Origin: a virus
DNA length: 64,000 nucleotides
Virus record (IMG/VR): IMGVR_UViG_3300024261_000014
Span: 19,880 to 83,879 of that record
Strand: one strand, 5' to 3'
Shown here: positions 39,460 through 48,075 of the stretch, piece after piece
How the letters are laid out: the number at the start of each line of letters is the position of its first letter
How positions within the stretch are numbered: position 1 is the first letter of the stretch
Notes under the pieces: generated by a model
The model's database searches: none
Told to the model about the DNA's origin: nothing
What the model saw: only the letters and a program-made list of their open reading frames with translations
Program-made: the position numbers and the translations under genes

Positions 39460-39648
39460 TTAAGTATCCAGATTCGTGTACAAATCTTGGACTTTTTTAT
39501 CATAAAATTCTTTTCTTTTCTTATCACGATACCTTTGTCGTGCTTTTGCTTTTAAATCTTCAGCATTACGCATATAATGTTCCATCTGCCACTTTCGTTG
39601 AGCATCCTGACGTTCTTTATCGGTATGGTATTTACGTTTTCGTCCCAT
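39460..39648 (-). CDS. small basic protein
   Basis: MGRKRKY...; overlaps the upstream gene. Confidence 0.55.
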   Translation of the reverse strand: MGRKRKYHTDKERQDAQRKWQMEHYMRNAEDLKAKARQRYRDKKRKEFYDKKVQDLYTNLDT

Positions 39649-40696
39649 GTGTTTTCTCTGCCATAAAATTTAATCTATTAAATGTTGTGTGTAACCAACT
39701 ATCTAAATTAGGTAACGCCGTGTACAATTTATCTTCCAAAAATTTCTTTTGAAATATATGTTTCACTAAACGCTGTATAGGATTCCCACATATCTCTTGT
39801 ATTTTTAACTTACTACTTCCAGATATGTTTATCTCATCTAAATCCATCAGTTTCTTATTCAAGAGTAATTGGTCTGAAGAATTAGTAATTACTTCACATA
39901 ATTTAAATTGTTTCTTTTTAGATTCTGCACTTTTCAGAACATCTTCTATTGTAAACTTATGGGGGGATTCAAGCCAAGGAAATAACTTTAAAAGGGTTTT
40001 TATTCCAGCACCCTTAATACCAGGTATCCCATCCGATTTATCACCATCCATTGTTCTAAATAATAAAAAGTTTGTGGAACTTATGCCATATTCTTCCAAT
40101 ATTTTTTCTTGGTCATACATCTTCTTCTTAGTAGGTGACCAAACTGAAATTCTATCATCCACCAATTGTAAGAAATCTTTATCGGTTGACATTATAGTAA
40201 CCTTATCCTTAAAGACATGTTTTGCTGAATAACCAATCACATCATCTGCTTCTATGTTTTCAGCAGTAGTAATAGTTAAAGGTAATAGTTCTAAATACTC
40301 GATTACTCTATTTAATTGAGCAATCATCATTTTATGTTCATCTGCACGAGTTAAAGATATTCCATCTGTTCTATTCAACCGAAGAGACATCTTTCTTCCT
40401 GCCTTATACTCTGGAAATATTTTTCTACGGCGGTTAGACCCACCTTTACCATCAAATACTATGATAGTTCTTGTGGGTCTTACCATATTAATAGCGAATC
40501 CAATTGACCTTAAAAAACCTACTATTCCACCAATGTGAACCCCATCCTCATTAGTAGTAGGTACTGCGGTAAACACTCTAATAAAAGTGTTTAAACCATC
40601 AATCAATAAAACCGAGTCATTTGGTTCTCCACCATCAACCTTTCCGCCAGATTTTTTTATTTCTTCGAGTATAGATAAGTGTTTTTGATTAATCAC
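39632..40696 (-). CDS. 5'-3' exonuclease / RNase H (FEN-like)
   Basis: IDGLN, FDG, YKAGR, EADD, STDKDFLQL, GDKSDGIPGIKG. Confidence 0.93.
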   Translation of the reverse strand: MINQKHLSILEEIKKSGGKVDGGEPNDSVLLIDGLNTFIRVFTAVPTTNEDGVHIGGIVGFLRSIGFAINMVRPTRTIIVFDGKGGSNRRRKIFPEYKAGRKMSLRLNRTDGISLTRADEHKMMIAQLNRVIEYLELLPLTITTAENIEADDVIGYSAKHVFKDKVTIMSTDKDFLQLVDDRISVWSPTKKKMYDQEKILEEYGISSTNFLLFRTMDGDKSDGIPGIKGAGIKTLLKLFPWLESPHKFTIEDVLKSAESKKKQFKLCEVITNSSDQLLLNKKLMDLDEINISGSSKLKIQEICGNPIQRLVKHIFQKKFLEDKLYTALPNLDSWLHTTFNRLNFMAEKTHGTKT

Positions 40697-41789
40697 CTAA
40701 GACCTCATCTGTGAACTCTACATCATCAATACCAAGTTTTTCTTTGTATTTTAATATAACCTTATCACAAATGATACCATAGACATAGTCTTTCAACTCA
40801 TCATCTTTGGTAATTAACTCTTCCCAATCCTTAGATAAAAACTTATGGTCTTTACCATTTTGGTCTGTAAGAGTGTACCACGCACCAGCTGATTTAATCA
40901 ACTTATGTTCTTTTAGAACAGTCAACCAAGCTCCGTAGTTATCAATACCCCTATCAAAGTACATATGATAATCTGTATGTCTTAAAGGTGGCCCAAGTCT
41001 GTTTTTCACAATCTGTGCTCTACACTTCATACCTAATACATTTTTTGCTGTATCTTTAATTTGTCCCATGTTCTTCAACCTAATTCTTGTTGAAGCGTGG
41101 AATGGTAATGCTTTCCCACCACTTGTTGTCCAAGGGTCTCCGAACATTACTCCGAGTTTTTGTCTTAATTGATTAGTAAACACAAGTGCCACTCGTTGTC
41201 TACCAACCATTTGAGTAATCTTTCTCAATGCTTTTGATATAATGATTGCTTTTGCAGTTGCCCAACCATCTTTATCAAAATCTGCTTCCAACTCTACTTT
41301 CGTAGTAGCTGCAGCGAGTGAATCAACCATAATAGTTACTAATCTATCTTTATCTGATTCCCTAACTTTAGTTATAATTTCTACAATCGCTTCAAATATA
41401 TCTTCTACTGTCTCTAAGTGTAGATATAACATCTTACCCATATCAATTCCAATCACTTCCATAAACTCTTGAGAAACTGAAGTTTCAGTATCTATATAAA
41501 CTGCAACCCCACCTTTCTTTTGAGTTTCTGCTAAGATGTGTGCACCAAGTAGAGATTTTCCACTTGATTCTAATCCATTGATTTCTGTAATTCTTCCAAC
41601 TGCAATTCCACCATTTGGTCTATTTGATATAGCCAAATCTAACATAGAACTACCTGTTGAGATAAAATCTGTGATATCCGTAGGTGTATTATCTGTACCA
41701 TCCAGAAAGTATGCTACTTTATTATCTTTAAATTTCTTATTTAAACTGTCGGCCAAAGTATCGGCCAATACATCGTGTACTGATGACAT
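40689..41789 (-). CDS. recA: RecA/UvsX recombinase
   Basis: GLESSGKS, YIDTE, VDSLAA, FTNQLR, TSGGKALPFHAS. Confidence 0.95.
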   Translation of the reverse strand: MSSVHDVLADTLADSLNKKFKDNKVAYFLDGTDNTPTDITDFISTGSSMLDLAISNRPNGGIAVGRITEINGLESSGKSLLGAHILAETQKKGGVAVYIDTETSVSQEFMEVIGIDMGKMLYLHLETVEDIFEAIVEIITKVRESDKDRLVTIMVDSLAAATTKVELEADFDKDGWATAKAIIISKALRKITQMVGRQRVALVFTNQLRQKLGVMFGDPWTTSGGKALPFHASTRIRLKNMGQIKDTAKNVLGMKCRAQIVKNRLGPPLRHTDYHMYFDRGIDNYGAWLTVLKEHKLIKSAGAWYTLTDQNGKDHKFLSKDWEELITKDDELKDYVYGIICDKVILKYKEKLGIDDVEFTDEVLGD

Positions 41790-41889
41790 TCATTTCTCCT
41801 TATCAAATTGTTAATGTGTAGTTAGGGAATACAATAACACCCATCTCTACTTTTGTTGTATGTTGCCACACATTAACGGGGGTTTTTAT

Positions 41890-42663
41890 TTACGAGTTAA
41901 ATAACTCATCAAAAGCATCACCAGTATTACTTACCTTAGATTTGTCAAGTTCAGCTACATTTCCTCCAACGGCTTTTGCTGTTGTTGATACTTCTGAATC
42001 TTCTTCAGTTGCATCACCATCAGGGTTTAACCATGTATTTAGTATATCTGTCATATCATCGTATGATAACTCTTGATAGATTTCTGTAATGTCCTGTTGT
42101 TTCTTTACTTTTTCAAGTATATCAGGCTCATCAGAAATCGGTGATTGATTAGGTTTGACGCGAATGTTAGTTTTTGGATAACTTGCTCCACTCTCCTCAG
42201 CTGAGATAAACTCTACCGAAATATCACGACCATTAATTGGGTCTGTAATATCACCATAATCAGGGTCTGCGATTACTGAAAGAAGTTCTTGATAAACTGT
42301 CTTTCCAAATCCCCAAAACTTCACACCTTGCGATTCTTCACCACGAACTATAACTGGAGCAAAAGTTCTCATCTTTGCTTCAAGTTTACGTGATAACTGA
42401 TAATCTTCCTTATTGCCACTTGCTTTTAGTTTTTGAGCAAACTCTTCAATAGGGTCTGGTCTACCAAAAGAAATTGGTGATAAATAAGAGCGATTGCTCA
42501 GATTGTAGTGAAAAAACAATTCAATAAAAGGATTATCTTTATTGAATGAGTAAGGTACGATACGAATTTGAGTTTTACCTGGTTGTGGTTTCCAAAGACT
42601 GGAAGTCCGATTGTTAGTTGTTTGTAACTGCCCGAGGCGTTTTTTTATTGCGTTTAAATCCAT
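41890..42663 (-). CDS. single-stranded DNA-binding protein (gp32-like)
   Basis: WKP..G...IRIVP, WGFGK, DITD...GRD, acidic tail ending FDELFN. Confidence 0.8.
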   Translation of the reverse strand: MDLNAIKKRLGQLQTTNNRTSSLWKPQPGKTQIRIVPYSFNKDNPFIELFFHYNLSNRSYLSPISFGRPDPIEEFAQKLKASGNKEDYQLSRKLEAKMRTFAPVIVRGEESQGVKFWGFGKTVYQELLSVIADPDYGDITDPINGRDISVEFISAEESGASYPKTNIRVKPNQSPISDEPDILEKVKKQQDITEIYQELSYDDMTDILNTWLNPDGDATEEDSEVSTTAKAVGGNVAELDKSKVSNTGDAFDELFNS

Positions 42664-42775
42664 TTCATATTCTCCATTTGTTTATGTTTATTTTTCATTT
42701 GTCAATCAAGTGTAACCTTGATACAATAATATATATCAACTAAATTTGCTAAAATGTAATATAGTTTAAGTTTTT

Positions 42776-42854
42776 TATAAAAAAAAAAGGTTCATTTCGT
42801 TTTTAAGTCTATCATAAGTGGAAACTAAAAATCGGTGAGAACCTTTTTTTATAA
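42776..42854. terminator. long inverted repeat / bidirectional terminator-like hairpin
   Basis: TATAAAAAAAAAAGGTTC ... GAACCTTTTTTTATA. Confidence 0.6.
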
Positions 42855-42855
42855 G

Positions 42856-43261
42856 TTGGAAATTTTAGGGAATGTAGGATTTGCATACCTACAACTTTCT
42901 GCTCAGATTTTATTGCCCTTGTACCTAACACCCATCAGTTACGATGATTCTCCTCAAGATGGTTAATCTCATTGGAGTGAGTACAATCTCTGTGTCAGTG
43001 CCTTATCTCTCTGAGTTTAGATTGATTCAGCCACAAGTTGGGATTTCAGTTTTACCCTTACCCAAAACAAGGTCTAAAGAATTGCTTCTTTATGTTTTCA
43101 GAAAGTACATTAGATGATTGATGTCTCAACTACTTAACCATTCGGCTTTGTAGATTCACCACGAACTCATCTTGGATTACCTTATGGGCTTCTAAAGTCT
43201 ACCCATTATTCGGTCAATTCCATACGAAGTTAATTACTCCTCGTACTTTTCAAAAATCCAA
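42856..43261 (-). ncRNA. candidate ~400-nt multi-helix non-coding RNA, family unassigned
   Basis: ORF-free, GC-richer core with many nested complementary segments; promoter-like motif upstream and terminator downstream; strand inferred from context. Confidence 0.6.
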
Positions 43262-43472
43262 TTTGTCAAAAAACTATGTATCTCATTTGATACATTAATA
43301 TATATGTATATAAATTCCCAAAATACATTTTATTTTAAAAAAAAACGTAAATAACTGAAAAAAACTTGATATTTATATATAGTTAACCGATTATGAGTTA
43401 ATTCAAACGCGTTGTTTTGGAGTGTATTGTTTTAATACACCCGTACTATATCATAATGATACACTTGTGTAA

Positions 43473-43880
43473 CTATTTGTTCCAATCCTTCACATTTACT
43501 ACCTGGTGTATTTTAGTAGGTATTATATTCAAACCTGTTTCGTTGGTTAGTAGTAAAGTATTTTGATATTCACTCCAATCAACATTAAAGCTCTTATCTA
43601 AGATTCCTTTATTCTTTGCTCTGATAACTTCATTCAAAGCGTTAATAGTATATAGAGTATTACTCTGTTTCTTTCTATGTAGTGAAATAGTGTTCTCTAT
43701 GTTCTCCTCGTAATTATCAATAAACTCGACATTATAGGTACAAATTAATTGGGTTTCTTCCTTCATATTCTGAAAAATGTATATTTTATCATAAAGTATA
43801 TCGTTACACTCTATAATAACATCAAGTGTTTCTGGCAATCGAGATAAGCGGGTAAATGTACATAATAATTGAGTTCTCAT
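43473..43880 (-). CDS. hypothetical phage protein
   Basis: QLLCTF, HRKKQSNTLYTINALN. Confidence 0.65.
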   Translation of the reverse strand: MRTQLLCTFTRLSRLPETLDVIIECNDILYDKIYIFQNMKEETQLICTYNVEFIDNYEENIENTISLHRKKQSNTLYTINALNEVIRAKNKGILDKSFNVDWSEYQNTLLLTNETGLNIIPTKIHQVVNVKDWNK

Positions 43881-45225: not shown

Positions 45226-46490
45226 TAAAATCTCTTTGTTATATCCTTCATACTATGATAGTTATCACCCATAGATACTTTTGTTGGATATTTCCCATTT
45301 TGTTCTAATACTTCTTTTACTTTTTTTAAGTATCCCAAACCATCTCCTTTTACATCAAAATCAAATAAAAAGGCATCGTAATTATATAATACTAACCTAC
45401 TACTATAATCTCCATTTTCTATAATGGGAATTAATTCTTTTACGATACGAATATTATTTTCAGTCTCCGATAATTGTATCATATAATTGAACAATTTATT
45501 CGGATTCATATCGTGCAAGTTCACCTTAACTATTTCTCTATTATAAATATCAGATTGAATACTTTTCGATGATTTCCATGTACTCCACAACCCATTTATA
45601 AACTCATCAACCCTACCAAAAAACGGGTTTTGTTTCATTTCGGTAGTTATACCACCATATAAATACTTAAATGTTAATTGTTTTCCCTCATCATAACCTA
45701 ATCCATATGTTTTTGCTAGGTGATTATGTGCAGAACCTTTAGGGAATTTATAATCAATCATATCACCTATTAATCGTGGGTGATACGCATCAAAATCAAA
45801 CTCTACCAATACCCCATGTTTATGTCTACTGATAAATTGTTTTCTACTACCATCCTTTTTATTTAATGCTGCAAAATTCATTCCACCAAACCTATTACTT
45901 GGTCTACCCGTTAAAGTGTATGGATTATATTCTGAATAAACCATTTTATCATCTGTAGTGTATAATCCATTCTTTTCTATTTCATATAAAACTTCCAAGA
46001 TAGTTTGGTCATATTCCTTTTCAAAATTCACCATCAATTCTTTTGATACCTTTTCAAAATACTCAGCATGCTTTACCAACGGAATTATATCATTAACATT
46101 TTCTTTATCGTAATGTAATCTATAATTGTGGTGATGTGCAGTTGTTAAATGTTTATCAAAATCATATGGTTGATTTGTTTTCATATAATGACACCAATTC
46201 AAATCATAAACTTCATTAGAAGTTATCATAGAAATGTGCTTATGGGATTTTAAATCAGATACAAGCATTGGTGTATCTATATTCAGATATTGTATATCTT
46301 CCGAAAATTTTTCATTATGATGAACTGGTACTATAAATTCTCTTGTCATAGTACGAATATAATAACAAGACACTCGATTGTCAAGTGGATGTTTATTTAC
46401 ATCTGAAAACATTTGTAGATATACAAATGGTTCTTTCTGTAATCTTTTAGATAAAGTTTCCCAACTATCTTGTGTATTTACTATAACCAT
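45225..46490 (-). CDS. compact family A DNA polymerase-like protein
   Basis: TGRPS, motif A EFDFDAYHPRL, motif B KQLTFKYLYG, motif C YNYDAFLFD. Confidence 0.85.
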   Translation of the reverse strand: MVIVNTQDSWETLSKRLQKEPFVYLQMFSDVNKHPLDNRVSCYYIRTMTREFIVPVHHNEKFSEDIQYLNIDTPMLVSDLKSHKHISMITSNEVYDLNWCHYMKTNQPYDFDKHLTTAHHHNYRLHYDKENVNDIIPLVKHAEYFEKVSKELMVNFEKEYDQTILEVLYEIEKNGLYTTDDKMVYSEYNPYTLTGRPSNRFGGMNFAALNKKDGSRKQFISRHKHGVLVEFDFDAYHPRLIGDMIDYKFPKGSAHNHLAKTYGLGYDEGKQLTFKYLYGGITTEMKQNPFFGRVDEFINGLWSTWKSSKSIQSDIYNREIVKVNLHDMNPNKLFNYMIQLSETENNIRIVKELIPIIENGDYSSRLVLYNYDAFLFDFDVKGDGLGYLKKVKEVLEQNGKYPTKVSMGDNYHSMKDITKRF

Positions 46491-47374
46491 TAATTTAATT
46501 TATTCTTCACATACATAACTATCTGTTCAGCAACTCTTATCTCAGTATATTTTTCCATTCCGAAGAATCCAGGTGATGAATTAATCTCACATATTTTGTA
46601 TCCATCATTATCATATAATAAATCTACACCACCTATATCTAAATTTAATAATTTTGTAGATTCTAATGCTAAATATTCCATTTGTTCATCCAATTCTACT
46701 GGTTTTGCTTCTCCACCACGTGTGATGTTTGCTCTGAAATCTCCATCGGATGATTCCCGTTTCATTGCTCCAATAACTTTACCCCCCACTACGATAATTC
46801 TTAAATCTCTACCAAACGAATCACTAACAAATTCTTGTAATATAATATTAAACCTATCATTAAATTGTTCCATCATCTCTACTAATTGTTCGAAATTTGA
46901 TTTTTTTTCTGAAAGATAAACACCCTTTCCATGTGTTCCACTTAATGATTTTACCACTATGGGGAATCCAATATTCCTCTCCACATAACTTGAATCAATT
47001 GGATTTTTAACCAACATAGTTTTTGGATGTGGTATATTATTCTGTGAAAGTATTTGCATTGTGTAGAGTTTATCCTTTACATTATCAATTGCATCTGAAC
47101 TATTAATAAACAACACCCCCATACGTTCTAAGTGTCTGAATACTGCCTTCTGATAATATGTAGTGGATGAACCTACTCTTGGAATTACAAAATCAGGTAT
47201 TGTAGTGTGTTCATTTTCAACTAACACCGACCTTTTATTCTCTTTACTTATAAAGATATCAACATGATTTGGGTGTATTGCAAAACATTCTATACCCTCT
47301 TTTGCAAAACATTCTATTAATCTTTTAGTTTCATACGATGGGTTATCTTGTGTAGTAAATATCCAACCTTTCAT
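46490..47374 (-). CDS. rimK: RimK-family ATP-grasp ligase
   Basis: DKLYT, FPIVVK..GTHGKGV, QEFV, DLRIIVVG, FRANITRGG, GVDLL, EINSSPG; probable start MKGWIF. Confidence 0.9.
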   Translation of the reverse strand: MKGWIFTTQDNPSYETKRLIECFAKEGIECFAIHPNHVDIFISKENKRSVLVENEHTTIPDFVIPRVGSSTTYYQKAVFRHLERMGVLFINSSDAIDNVKDKLYTMQILSQNNIPHPKTMLVKNPIDSSYVERNIGFPIVVKSLSGTHGKGVYLSEKKSNFEQLVEMMEQFNDRFNIILQEFVSDSFGRDLRIIVVGGKVIGAMKRESSDGDFRANITRGGEAKPVELDEQMEYLALESTKLLNLDIGGVDLLYDNDGYKICEINSSPGFFGMEKYTEIRVAEQIVMYVKNKLN

Positions 47375-48075
47375 TACTTCTCCCAATAAGTTTCGCTCCA
47401 CAACTTAGTAGTTTCTGGAAATGTTTTCAGCATTATCTCTTTTAATGCAATAGCATATTCCCGTATCTCCCATTGTGAAGTAGATTCATCTCGTAATTCT
47501 ATAAAGTTCATAACACTTTGGAAAGATGCAGTCCAATAAACTAATGTGTATTGTGATAGTGGTAATACAATTCTAGCTTGTTCTTTTGCCATTCCCATAT
47601 TAACAAATCCCTCATACACTTCTATCATTTTTCTCATCAAATCCCCATATTCAAGTAATGCTCTATTAGATTGAAAATCTGTTAATTCCCCATCACTTGC
47701 TTGTTTATTATCATCTGATTGTTTTCTCCACTTATCAGGATAATAAAAATCTTTTACTGGCATATATCTACCACTAATTTCGTTCCAAGCATGGTCTTTG
47801 GTAACACTTGATGATGTGGTTTCAATCCCCACAACGTGTTTGTATGCTTGTCTCATAACAAATTCTGGTGCTTTAATAATAACTTGAATGTGTTGGTGTC
47901 TAAATGGTGAAAAGTGTTTATGTTTAATTAGAAACTTGGATAGTTTTCTATCCTTATCTGTAAACTTATCACTCTTTTGACCAAAGGAAACTCTTGCAGC
48001 ATTTACTGGAGTTAAATCATTACCAAGAGAATCAACTAATTCTATATAACCTTTATCTAATACATCAATTTTCAT
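47374..48075 (-). CDS. thyX: flavin-dependent thymidylate synthase
   Basis: NAARVSF, HFSPF, NEISGRY, EQARIVLP, SQWEIR. Confidence 0.92.
   Translation of the reverse strand: MKIDVLDKGYIELVDSLGNDLTPVNAARVSFGQKSDKFTDKDRKLSKFLIKHKHFSPFRHQHIQVIIKAPEFVMRQAYKHVVGIETTSSSVTKDHAWNEISGRYMPVKDFYYPDKWRKQSDDNKQASDGELTDFQSNRALLEYGDLMRKMIEVYEGFVNMGMAKEQARIVLPLSQYTLVYWTASFQSVMNFIELRDESTSQWEIREYAIALKEIMLKTFPETTKLWSETYWEK

Follow-up and report, generated by a model that had tools for sequence, protein, structure and literature searches.

A nested two-core RNA of the manA type ahead of the SSB and RecA genes in a viral contig

What does a virus keep in a gene-free gap directly ahead of its genes for a single-stranded DNA-binding protein (SSB) and RecA? 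The question is raised by the window analyzed here, a stretch of 64,000 nucleotides (nt) from IMG/VR virus record IMGVR_UViG_3300024261_000014, in which a gap of 809 bp (42664..43472) lies between minus-strand open reading frames (ORFs) at 41890..42663, the SSB gene, and 43473..43880. An original prediction, made from the sequence without database searches, had described the gap as free of ORFs with a GC-richer core, and had placed in it a large structured RNA, possibly of a new class, followed by a terminator-like inverted repeat. The description of the locus holds: ORFs inside the gap are of chance size only (39–57 amino acids [aa]), and G+C content is 36–42% in the core (42850-43250) against 17–25% in the flanks. 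A large, ornate, and conserved structured RNA upstream of SSB-RecA is likewise borne out by covariation among relatives, and the terminator after it by an inverted repeat. We conclude that a structured RNA of the manA family (RF01745), about 420 nt long, is encoded on the minus strand from about 43274 to 42856, and that it is probably free-standing and not a switch.

Folded architecture of the element

Eighty loci encoding relatives of the SSB protein were fetched, 20 of which were scanned with Rfam. The gap is 67–84% identical in about 30 of the 80; conservation begins near 43337 in close relatives and narrows in the most distant ones to about 43275..42853, essentially the boundaries first proposed. 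A search of IMG/VR with a word from the invariant loop returned at least 116 stretches. Removal of duplicates left 80 full-length stretches, 78 of them with the whole two-part element, and these 78 together with the window make up the 79 rows of alignment A2 (MAFFT columns), to which the pairing counts below refer. The rows are related marine phages, so that independent events are fewer than the cell counts suggest; each position nonetheless shows a large number of distinct pair types. As controls, partners were slid by 1–3 columns, 500 shuffles were made, and partners were swapped between sequences.

Energy alone does not place the fold beyond chance. The minimum free energy of the minus strand is −100.5 kcal/mol (z = −1.75), a stability that 4 of 100 shuffles match; the plus strand gives z = +0.03. 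The comparison with shuffled sequences that had been proposed as a check was thus nearly failed, yet covariation favors a structure, and it is the comparison with relatives that shows the structure to be real. In a first model of 19 helices, 93.6% of 7130 cells in A2 are paired, against 36–46% in the slid controls, and 62 of 92 pairs vary on both sides; none of the 500 shuffles reaches any of these measures, so the proposed check for covariation among relatives was passed. Many G-U pairs in A2 are compatible with the minus strand only, and because such pairs are meaningful only in minus-strand RNA, they assign the RNA to that strand. An all-against-all scan for stacked covarying columns brought out helices absent from the first model (Hx, Hy, and others). 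Taken together, Hx, Hy, the P2B inner stem, the third P3A hairpin, and the loop pairing KL2 are 97.8% paired, compared with 78.9% in shuffles. The elements of the resulting fold are as follows.

43274..42856, minus strand: whole structured RNA of nested two-core manA type, about 419 nt; the invariant columns of A2 start at 43274
43223..43245, minus strand: P1A hairpin with palindromic loop; 96.2% paired, 4 pairs vary on both sides
43221..43217 with 42873..42869, minus strand: closing stem Pc, enclosing both cores; 100% paired
43214..43179, minus strand: P2A, outer core; within helices 4–8, which are 85.7–100% paired
43172..43112, minus strand: P3A, outer core, a three-hairpin multistem with GUGGU loop; within helices 4–8
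43129..43126 with 43121..43118, minus strand: third P3A hairpin; full pairing in 68 of 79 sequences, 21 variants, 95.9% paired
43106..43099 with 42901..42894, minus strand: Hx, corresponding to outer-core P4; 8 of 8 pairs formed in 74 of 79, 20 variants
43075..43092, minus strand: P4A hairpin (helices 9–10), whose loop kisses the P5B loop
43072..43068 with 42921..42917, minus strand: Hy, closing the inner core; full pairing in 77 of 79, 14 variants
43038..43065, minus strand: P5A hairpin with near-invariant 18-nt loop; 100% paired, 2 pairs vary on both sides
43031..43000, minus strand: P2B, inner core; helices 12, 14, 15, 17, and 18 of the P2B/P3B region are 89.6–100% paired
43022..43019 with 43008..43005, minus strand: P2B inner stem; paired in 79 of 79, 6 variants
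42997..42926, minus strand: P3B, inner core, a three-hairpin multistem; within the same set of five helices, 89.6–100% paired
43015..43010 with 42907..42902, minus strand: pseudoknot of the P2B loop with the Hy–Hx linker; 100% paired, 3 pairs vary on both sides
42874..42892, minus strand: P5B hairpin, outer core; 99.5% paired, 4 pairs vary on both sides

Compensatory change is spread along the molecule. Every pair of helices 4–6 (P2A/P3A region, 43112..43214) varies on both sides, as do all four pairs of the third P3A hairpin, and one pair of Pc is G-C in 65 sequences and A-U in 14. Hx is 96.7% paired, with 6 pairs varying on both sides, whereas swapped partners give 5.75 of its 8 pairs; Hy is 99.7% paired, with two-sided variation in 4 of 5 pairs. 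Since Hx is flanked as P4 is in the Rfam consensus, by GUA ahead of the 5′ strand and by UUG ahead of P5, we identify Hx as the P4 of the outer core. The loops of P4A and P5B share a Watson-Crick run of at least 4 in 74 of the 79 sequences (33% with swapped partners). The P1A loop holds a palindrome of at least 6 nt in 60 of 79, against 23% of shuffled loops; a further palindromic variant departs from it at two positions that mirror each other. Complementarity also links P3A, through its GUGGU loop, to the ACCA loop of P3B (97.2% paired), but both loops are near-invariant, so that covariation is uninformative for this contact.

The comparison thus shows, at the level of covarying columns, an outer manA core made of P1A, Pc, P2A, the three-hairpin P3A, P4 (Hx), and P5B, and inside its P4 loop a partial, manA-like inner core of P5A, P2B, and the three-hairpin P3B, closed by Hy. 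Two long-range helices, the pseudoknot, and the kissing loop tie the cores together, which by the same comparison shows the RNA folding as a single interlocked molecule.

Eight complementary pairs underlay the original prediction, and all of them lie on the plus strand where they had been placed. Among its hairpins, ATGGG/CCCAT is 100% paired in A2 and TGTAGG/CCTACA and CATC/GATG are each 99.5% paired, with 5, 4, and 5 pairs varying on both sides, respectively; TAAAGA/TCTTTA is 71–84% paired in the MAFFT columns and has 3 such pairs. The long-range pair CTCAGA/TCTGAG (100% paired, 3 two-sided pairs) is the pseudoknot between the P2B loop and the Hy–Hx linker. Two other long-range pairs had to be given up: AAAGTAC/GTACTTT is 86.4% paired against 86.0% in shuffles, its arms belonging to P1A and Hx, and TTGTAC/GTACAA is 93% pairable with one-sided changes only, its 3′ arm colliding with Hy, in which 4 pairs vary on both sides. 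A model with the two cores side by side in one closing stem and a UUGUA/UACAA pseudoknot was likewise replaced after the covariation scan; that pseudoknot has one-sided changes only, and its 3′ arm belongs to Hy.

Membership in the manA family

At gathering thresholds, Rfam finds no family anywhere in the window; manA appears only when E-value thresholds are used.

42869..43065, minus strand: Rfam manA match, chimeric, joining inner P5A/P2B/P3B with outer P5B and the closing strand; 53.1 bits

The match (43065..42869) has an E-value of 1.7e-12 and spans model positions 1–192, the full length of the model. Two circumstances account for the low score of the window copy: the 5′ closing strand and most of P4 lie outside the stretch that the model covers, and the match is a chimera of inner-core and outer-core parts. 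The homologous site exceeds the manA cut-off in 14 of the 20 relative loci scanned (55.3–73 bits), and all four related IMG/VR records pass the gathering score. A second match to manA covers the 5′ half (43245..43040); it is weaker, at 20.3 bits in the window, and retains the signature words of the family. In the record of one relative both halves match, at 61.2 and 39.9 bits.

In the model alignments of both halves, the manA signatures are kept: GAAUAA...UAAGG around P2, the GUGGU loop, the ACCA loop, the GUA junction, and GGUA...AAUCC in P5. The consensus helices of the family (P1, closing stem, P2, three-hairpin P3, P4, and P5) are all found in the outer core with compensatory change, P4 (Hx) being interrupted by the inserted inner core. 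Hairpin P5A is aligned by Rfam twice, as P5 in the 5′ half and as P1 in the 3′ half. The occurrence of the element is also that of manA, in that the window and its relatives are IMG/VR virus contigs and the RNA-library runs described below are metatranscriptomes of marine or seawater origin. With relatives above the cut-off and both halves matching, the element is, as judged by model match and signature words, a member or close variant of the known manA family and not a new class. The main text of Weinberg et al. (2010; PMC2864571) describes the family from marine metagenomes and T4-like cyanophages and calls it a probable riboswitch. In contigs L092 (near 690-711) and L191 (near 4745), only the invariant hairpin-loop word matches; these may carry a different manA-type RNA.

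Signals around the RNA and its likely role

Two copies of a promoter-like module and a long terminator-like hairpin surround the RNA, in the following setting.

43473..43880, minus strand: 135-aa ORF, the 5′ neighbor of the gap on that strand; no Pfam or PHROG match
43287..43338, minus strand: promoter-like module (copy 1), immediately ahead of the RNA and with a putative promoter role; one unit of a 52-nt direct repeat
43277..43294, minus strand: small hairpin with 6-nt arms and a T run after it, lying between module copy 1 and the RNA; read from sequence
42771..42850, minus strand: long terminator-like hairpin (inverted repeat I1), 27-nt arms and a T run
42718..42769, minus strand: promoter-like module copy 2, ahead of the SSB gene; the same direct repeat (D1)
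41890..42663, minus strand: gp32-like SSB gene (Pfam PF08804), 3′ neighbor of the RNA
40689..41789, minus strand: RecA gene (Pfam PF00154), after the SSB gene
39632..40696, minus strand: 5′-3′ exonuclease gene (Pfam PF02739), after the RecA gene

The two copies of the 52-nt repeat (43287-43338 and 42718-42769) are 73% identical and bracket the RNA cassette. A 15-nt word within them, ATATATTANTGTATC, occurs exactly in the window only at 43303..43289 and 42734..42720; it is not a genome-wide motif, with 5 matches at up to 2 mismatches compared with 3.6 expected. A second direct repeat (42771-42791 and 43328-43348) accompanies the first, and the two repeats, spaced 557 and 569 nt, bracket the cassette, which suggests that it arose by duplication or insertion of a unit made of terminator tail plus promoter.

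The arms of the terminator-like inverted repeat lie at 42782-42808 and 42824-42850, with a T run after them on the RNA strand, as the original prediction had it. A strict terminator scan found none, the loop of this hairpin being longer than the limit of the scan. A stem followed by a T run is present in the flanks of 68 of the 78 relatives, in 18 stem variants. The inner half of the hairpin (42782..42850) is conserved in sequence while its outer G+C stem varies freely; a word of this inner half is present in 50 of the 68 hairpins, a conservation that exceeds what a plain terminator needs. Segments of the element show no covariation with the terminator arm, sharing 5.56 letters with their own terminator and 5.26 with those of others. 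An expression platform of the riboswitch kind, sharing a strand with the fold or competing for one, was accordingly not found: the terminator arm has no covarying partner in the element. In a clade of eight contigs (L081, L168, L131, L111, L119, L126, L063, and L139), an extra conserved piece of about 65 nt follows the RNA, and then a different terminator; this piece is a candidate for an additional small RNA module.

Relatives that lack the RNA are also informative. Sixty SSB loci have at least 700 nt upstream of the gene; the RNA is present in 24 and absent in 36. In all ten of the RNA-less loci inspected, a similar module lies directly upstream of the gene, along with a small 5′ hairpin ahead of the SSB gene that covaries as judged by eye. 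In locus L014 (2670-3001), whose SSB is 82% identical, the module and the terminator hairpin are kept and the manA element is missing between them, which would fit either a clean loss of the RNA or a locus that it never entered. The SSB leader of the window (42664..42722, minus strand) begins with a 5′ hairpin, in the position that the small hairpin holds ahead of the RNA; among relatives its two arms change in sequence but, as judged by eye, still pair. An A/U-rich tract follows up to the ribosome-binding site, and the arrangement recalls the autoregulatory operator of T4 gene 32.

At least part of the element stretch is present in 20 metatranscriptome runs from 17 studies, and in all four runs whose contigs were compared with the window (three studies), contigs cover the element with no differing letters. 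These contigs are assemblies; they do not show strand, ends, or level, and RNA libraries can contain DNA. One contig, from run X11, ends at 43274, the first invariant column of A2, where it is joined to adapter-like letters, which is a hint only. Letters that we take to be library adapter are joined to contig ends at 43274 and 42902 (X11), 43236 and 42886 (X5), and 43225 (X1). We did not use the word depths of the contigs as evidence, given that depth cannot rank genes and uncovered parts prove nothing: they are 444.5, 171.9, 2823.1, and 95 on the element (X1, X2, X5, and X11, respectively) and 85.9, 22.8, 84.9, and 4.9 on the longest SSB-gene contigs of the same runs. Nor did we use the finding that X2 and X5, from two studies, have no contig over 42711-42885 and SSB contigs that stop at 42710.

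These signals lead us to favor a free-standing RNA. It would be transcribed from its own promoter-like module, and its transcript would end at its own long terminator hairpin; the SSB-RecA genes would start separately from the second copy of the module. Its own module, its terminator, and the separate module of the SSB gene point to an RNA that would act as a product in its own right rather than as a switch for the SSB gene. By analogy with single-core manA, the fused form may make kissing-loop contacts within one chain, and, on analogy again, the palindromic P1A loop may pair with a second molecule.

Several observations weigh against a free-standing RNA. The promoter is read from a repeated module that matches sigma-70 poorly and that a minus-strand consensus scan passed over. 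The RNA-library data consist of assembled contigs that lack strand, ends, and level and may derive from DNA, and the contig of run X1 (41730-43032) bridges the SSB gene, the terminator, and the element, which means that read-through molecules or contaminating DNA exist. The window copy falls 2.1 bits below the manA gathering score of 55.2 and so misses the membership cut-off; Rfam, moreover, files manA as cis-regulatory. The outer stem P0 has weak support from comparison (60% paired on the badly aligned MAFFT columns). The original prediction had closed the RNA with this stem, TTGGA/TCCAA, and the stem keeps a small advantage in energy, since the mean pairing energy is −9.1 kcal/mol for the 5′ and 3′ flanks of one sequence and −7.8 for those of different sequences, with on average one third of the other sequences' 3′ flanks pairing equally well or better. 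A2 is drawn from closely related marine phages, which inflates the event counts, and self-assembly and any function in trans are suggested by analogy only. Finally, the RNA lies upstream of a gene, on the same strand, in every locus examined, and the SSB gene starts within 500 nt downstream in 63 of the 74 element loci that have at least 500 nt downstream.

The next gene is not SSB in the other 11 of these 74 loci; nine of them were scanned with Pfam, and L163 and L139 make up the rest. By Pfam, a gene for Hsp20 comes next in L098 (2567-3040) and a methyltransferase gene stands between the RNA and the SSB gene in L136 (1608-2222) and L183 (8443-9057). The next ORF is a 700-aa ORF without a Pfam match in L192 (1933-4044) and L146; in L194 (860-1642), a Mom-family gene comes second downstream, after an ORF without a match. 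The next ORFs in L094, L135, and L181 have no Pfam match; in L094, this ORF is separated from the element by about 40 nt that contain no terminator.

The position of the RNA could mean, as the main alternative, that it is a cis-acting leader of the riboswitch or attenuator kind, in which a ligand or protein sensed by the two-core manA fold would determine terminator read-through into the SSB, RecA, and exonuclease genes. The Rfam label, the naming of manA as a probable riboswitch in the main text of Weinberg et al. (2010; PMC2864571), the same-strand gene downstream in all loci (most often SSB), the terminator after the fold, the contig that joins element, terminator, and SSB gene, and the L094 ORF that follows the element without a terminator all speak for such a leader. 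What makes us think it unlikely is that the terminator is separate from the fold, with no common strand, and that no segment of the element covaries with the terminator arm; the SSB gene has its own copy of the module, which is kept in the ten inspected of the 36 RNA-less relatives, and the downstream genes are functionally unrelated. We know of no ligand for manA, which also counts against a leader. Separate matches of both halves to the Rfam model would fit two independent manA RNAs in tandem, each folding by itself, an arrangement that we regard as improbable and already contradicted by covariation: Pc (43221..43217 with 42873..42869) spans both halves, Hx and Hy join strands of the 5′ half to strands of the 3′ half with many compensatory changes, in the model alignment the 3′ half lacks its own closing strand on the 5′ side, and hairpin P5A is claimed by both matches.

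More improbable still is that the gap acts as DNA, as a replication origin or protein-binding region, the former of which the original prediction had named as its alternative. Its A+T-rich flanks (17–25% G+C) and its palindromes beside replication genes would suit that role, but there are no iteron-like arrays (only the two two-copy direct repeats), cumulative GC skew does not turn at the gap, the compensatory G-U pairs are meaningful only in minus-strand RNA, and the stretch matches an RNA covariance model and is present in RNA libraries. Least probable is that the RNA forms an entirely new class with no relation to known families, the possibility first raised for this locus. The lack of a gathering-threshold match in the window, and a size and nested layout absent from the Rfam manA model, are in its favor; it is already contradicted by the 3′ half, a match of 53.1 bits over the full manA model (E 1.7e-12), by the weaker match of the 5′ half, by the manA signatures in both halves, and by relatives above the cut-off.

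The source record is 83.9 kb long, with a CheckV completeness of 41%, and nearly all ORFs of at least 120 aa in the window are on the minus strand. Beyond the exonuclease gene lie genes for a DnaB-like helicase, ribonucleotide reductase, and PolB. A few genes upstream of the gap, on the same strand, is a gene for a RimK-like ATP-grasp ligase (46490..47401; PF08443, E 2.8e-50); the two ORFs between it and the 135-aa ORF (421 and 447 aa) have no Pfam or PHROG match. ARAGORN finds no tRNA or tmRNA gene in the window, in line with the original prediction. The closest cultured phage, Microcystis phage Mel-JY01, is distant (55% identity in RecA, 43% in PolB); its whole genome (190 kb) contains no manA match, and it has a gap of only about 116 nt (locus L195, PP395634.1 53692-53807) before an unannotated gene that precedes RecA. 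A blastn search of the gap against 50,697 phage records gave no match.

The two-core form among known RNAs

The manA RNA has been an orphan riboswitch candidate since 2010, and a two-core form with promoter-like and terminator signals of its own argues against the switch model. The nested form is widespread, with at least 78 distinct IMG/VR copies and a presence in 17 metatranscriptome studies, and its covarying long-range contacts mark which manA contacts selection preserves; at about 420 nt it is also a well-constrained target for structural biology. For annotation, the consequence is that such genes go unannotated, since the 5′ half escapes the Rfam model and the window copy scores below the cut-off.

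Recent work on single-core manA offers a closer comparison. As reported in the text of a preprint (Ren et al., 2026; bioRxiv 10.64898/2026.07.01.735769), single manA RNAs of less than 200 nt assemble in vitro into 8-, 10-, and 60-mers through intermolecular kissing loops and a GNRA loop-receptor contact. The element belongs to the same family, and each of its cores has loops whose sequence complements that of loops in the partner core; the contacts of the preprint are intermolecular and in vitro, whereas those of the element are read from covariation and would lie within one chain. The words 'tandem' and 'fused' are absent from the text of the preprint, and we found no description of a fused or nested manA in the literature searched, although the supplements to Weinberg et al. 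(2010) and to the preprint, which lay outside that search, may show enlarged examples. The fused form would seem to internalize the assembly contacts of manA. Taken further, and as a tentative and somewhat doubtful proposal, the two-core RNA could be a natural covalent manA 'dimer' in which the loop-loop contacts that build RNA-only cages from single manA RNAs in vitro are turned inward (P4A with P5B loops, GUGGU with ACCA loops, and the P2B loop with its linker) while the P1A palindrome still joins molecules. Were this so, it would be evolutionary evidence that the quaternary contacts of manA are selected in nature, and it would mean that phages make an abundant, self-organizing RNA particle or scaffold during replication rather than a riboswitch.

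Two homologous domains that dock within one RNA are known from tandem-aptamer riboswitches such as the glycine riboswitch, in which the aptamers lie side by side and have a known ligand and an expression platform. The cores of the element are nested, not side by side, and no coupling to a platform was found. GOLLD and ROOL are large, elaborate, phage-borne noncoding RNAs that behave as genes of their own; the element is smaller, its sequence signatures are those of manA, and the Rfam models of GOLLD and ROOL give no match to it at gathering score or at E-values up to 10. With the manA motif itself (RF01745), it shares an occurrence in marine phages and metagenomes, the same helices and signature words, and a position upstream of a gene, and the Hsp20 neighbor in L098 recalls the association of manA with ibpA noted in the main text of Weinberg et al. 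(PMC2864571). It is about twice the length of the Rfam model (192 positions) and carries a second, partial core in the P4 loop; this inner core, unlike manA, has no P4 or P5 of its own and is closed by the new helix Hy. A pseudoknot, an intramolecular kissing loop, a terminator of its own, and a promoter-like module are further additions to the model. The family is thus known; the nested two-core layout, the interlocking helices, and the cassette organization are absent from the Rfam model and from the papers searched.

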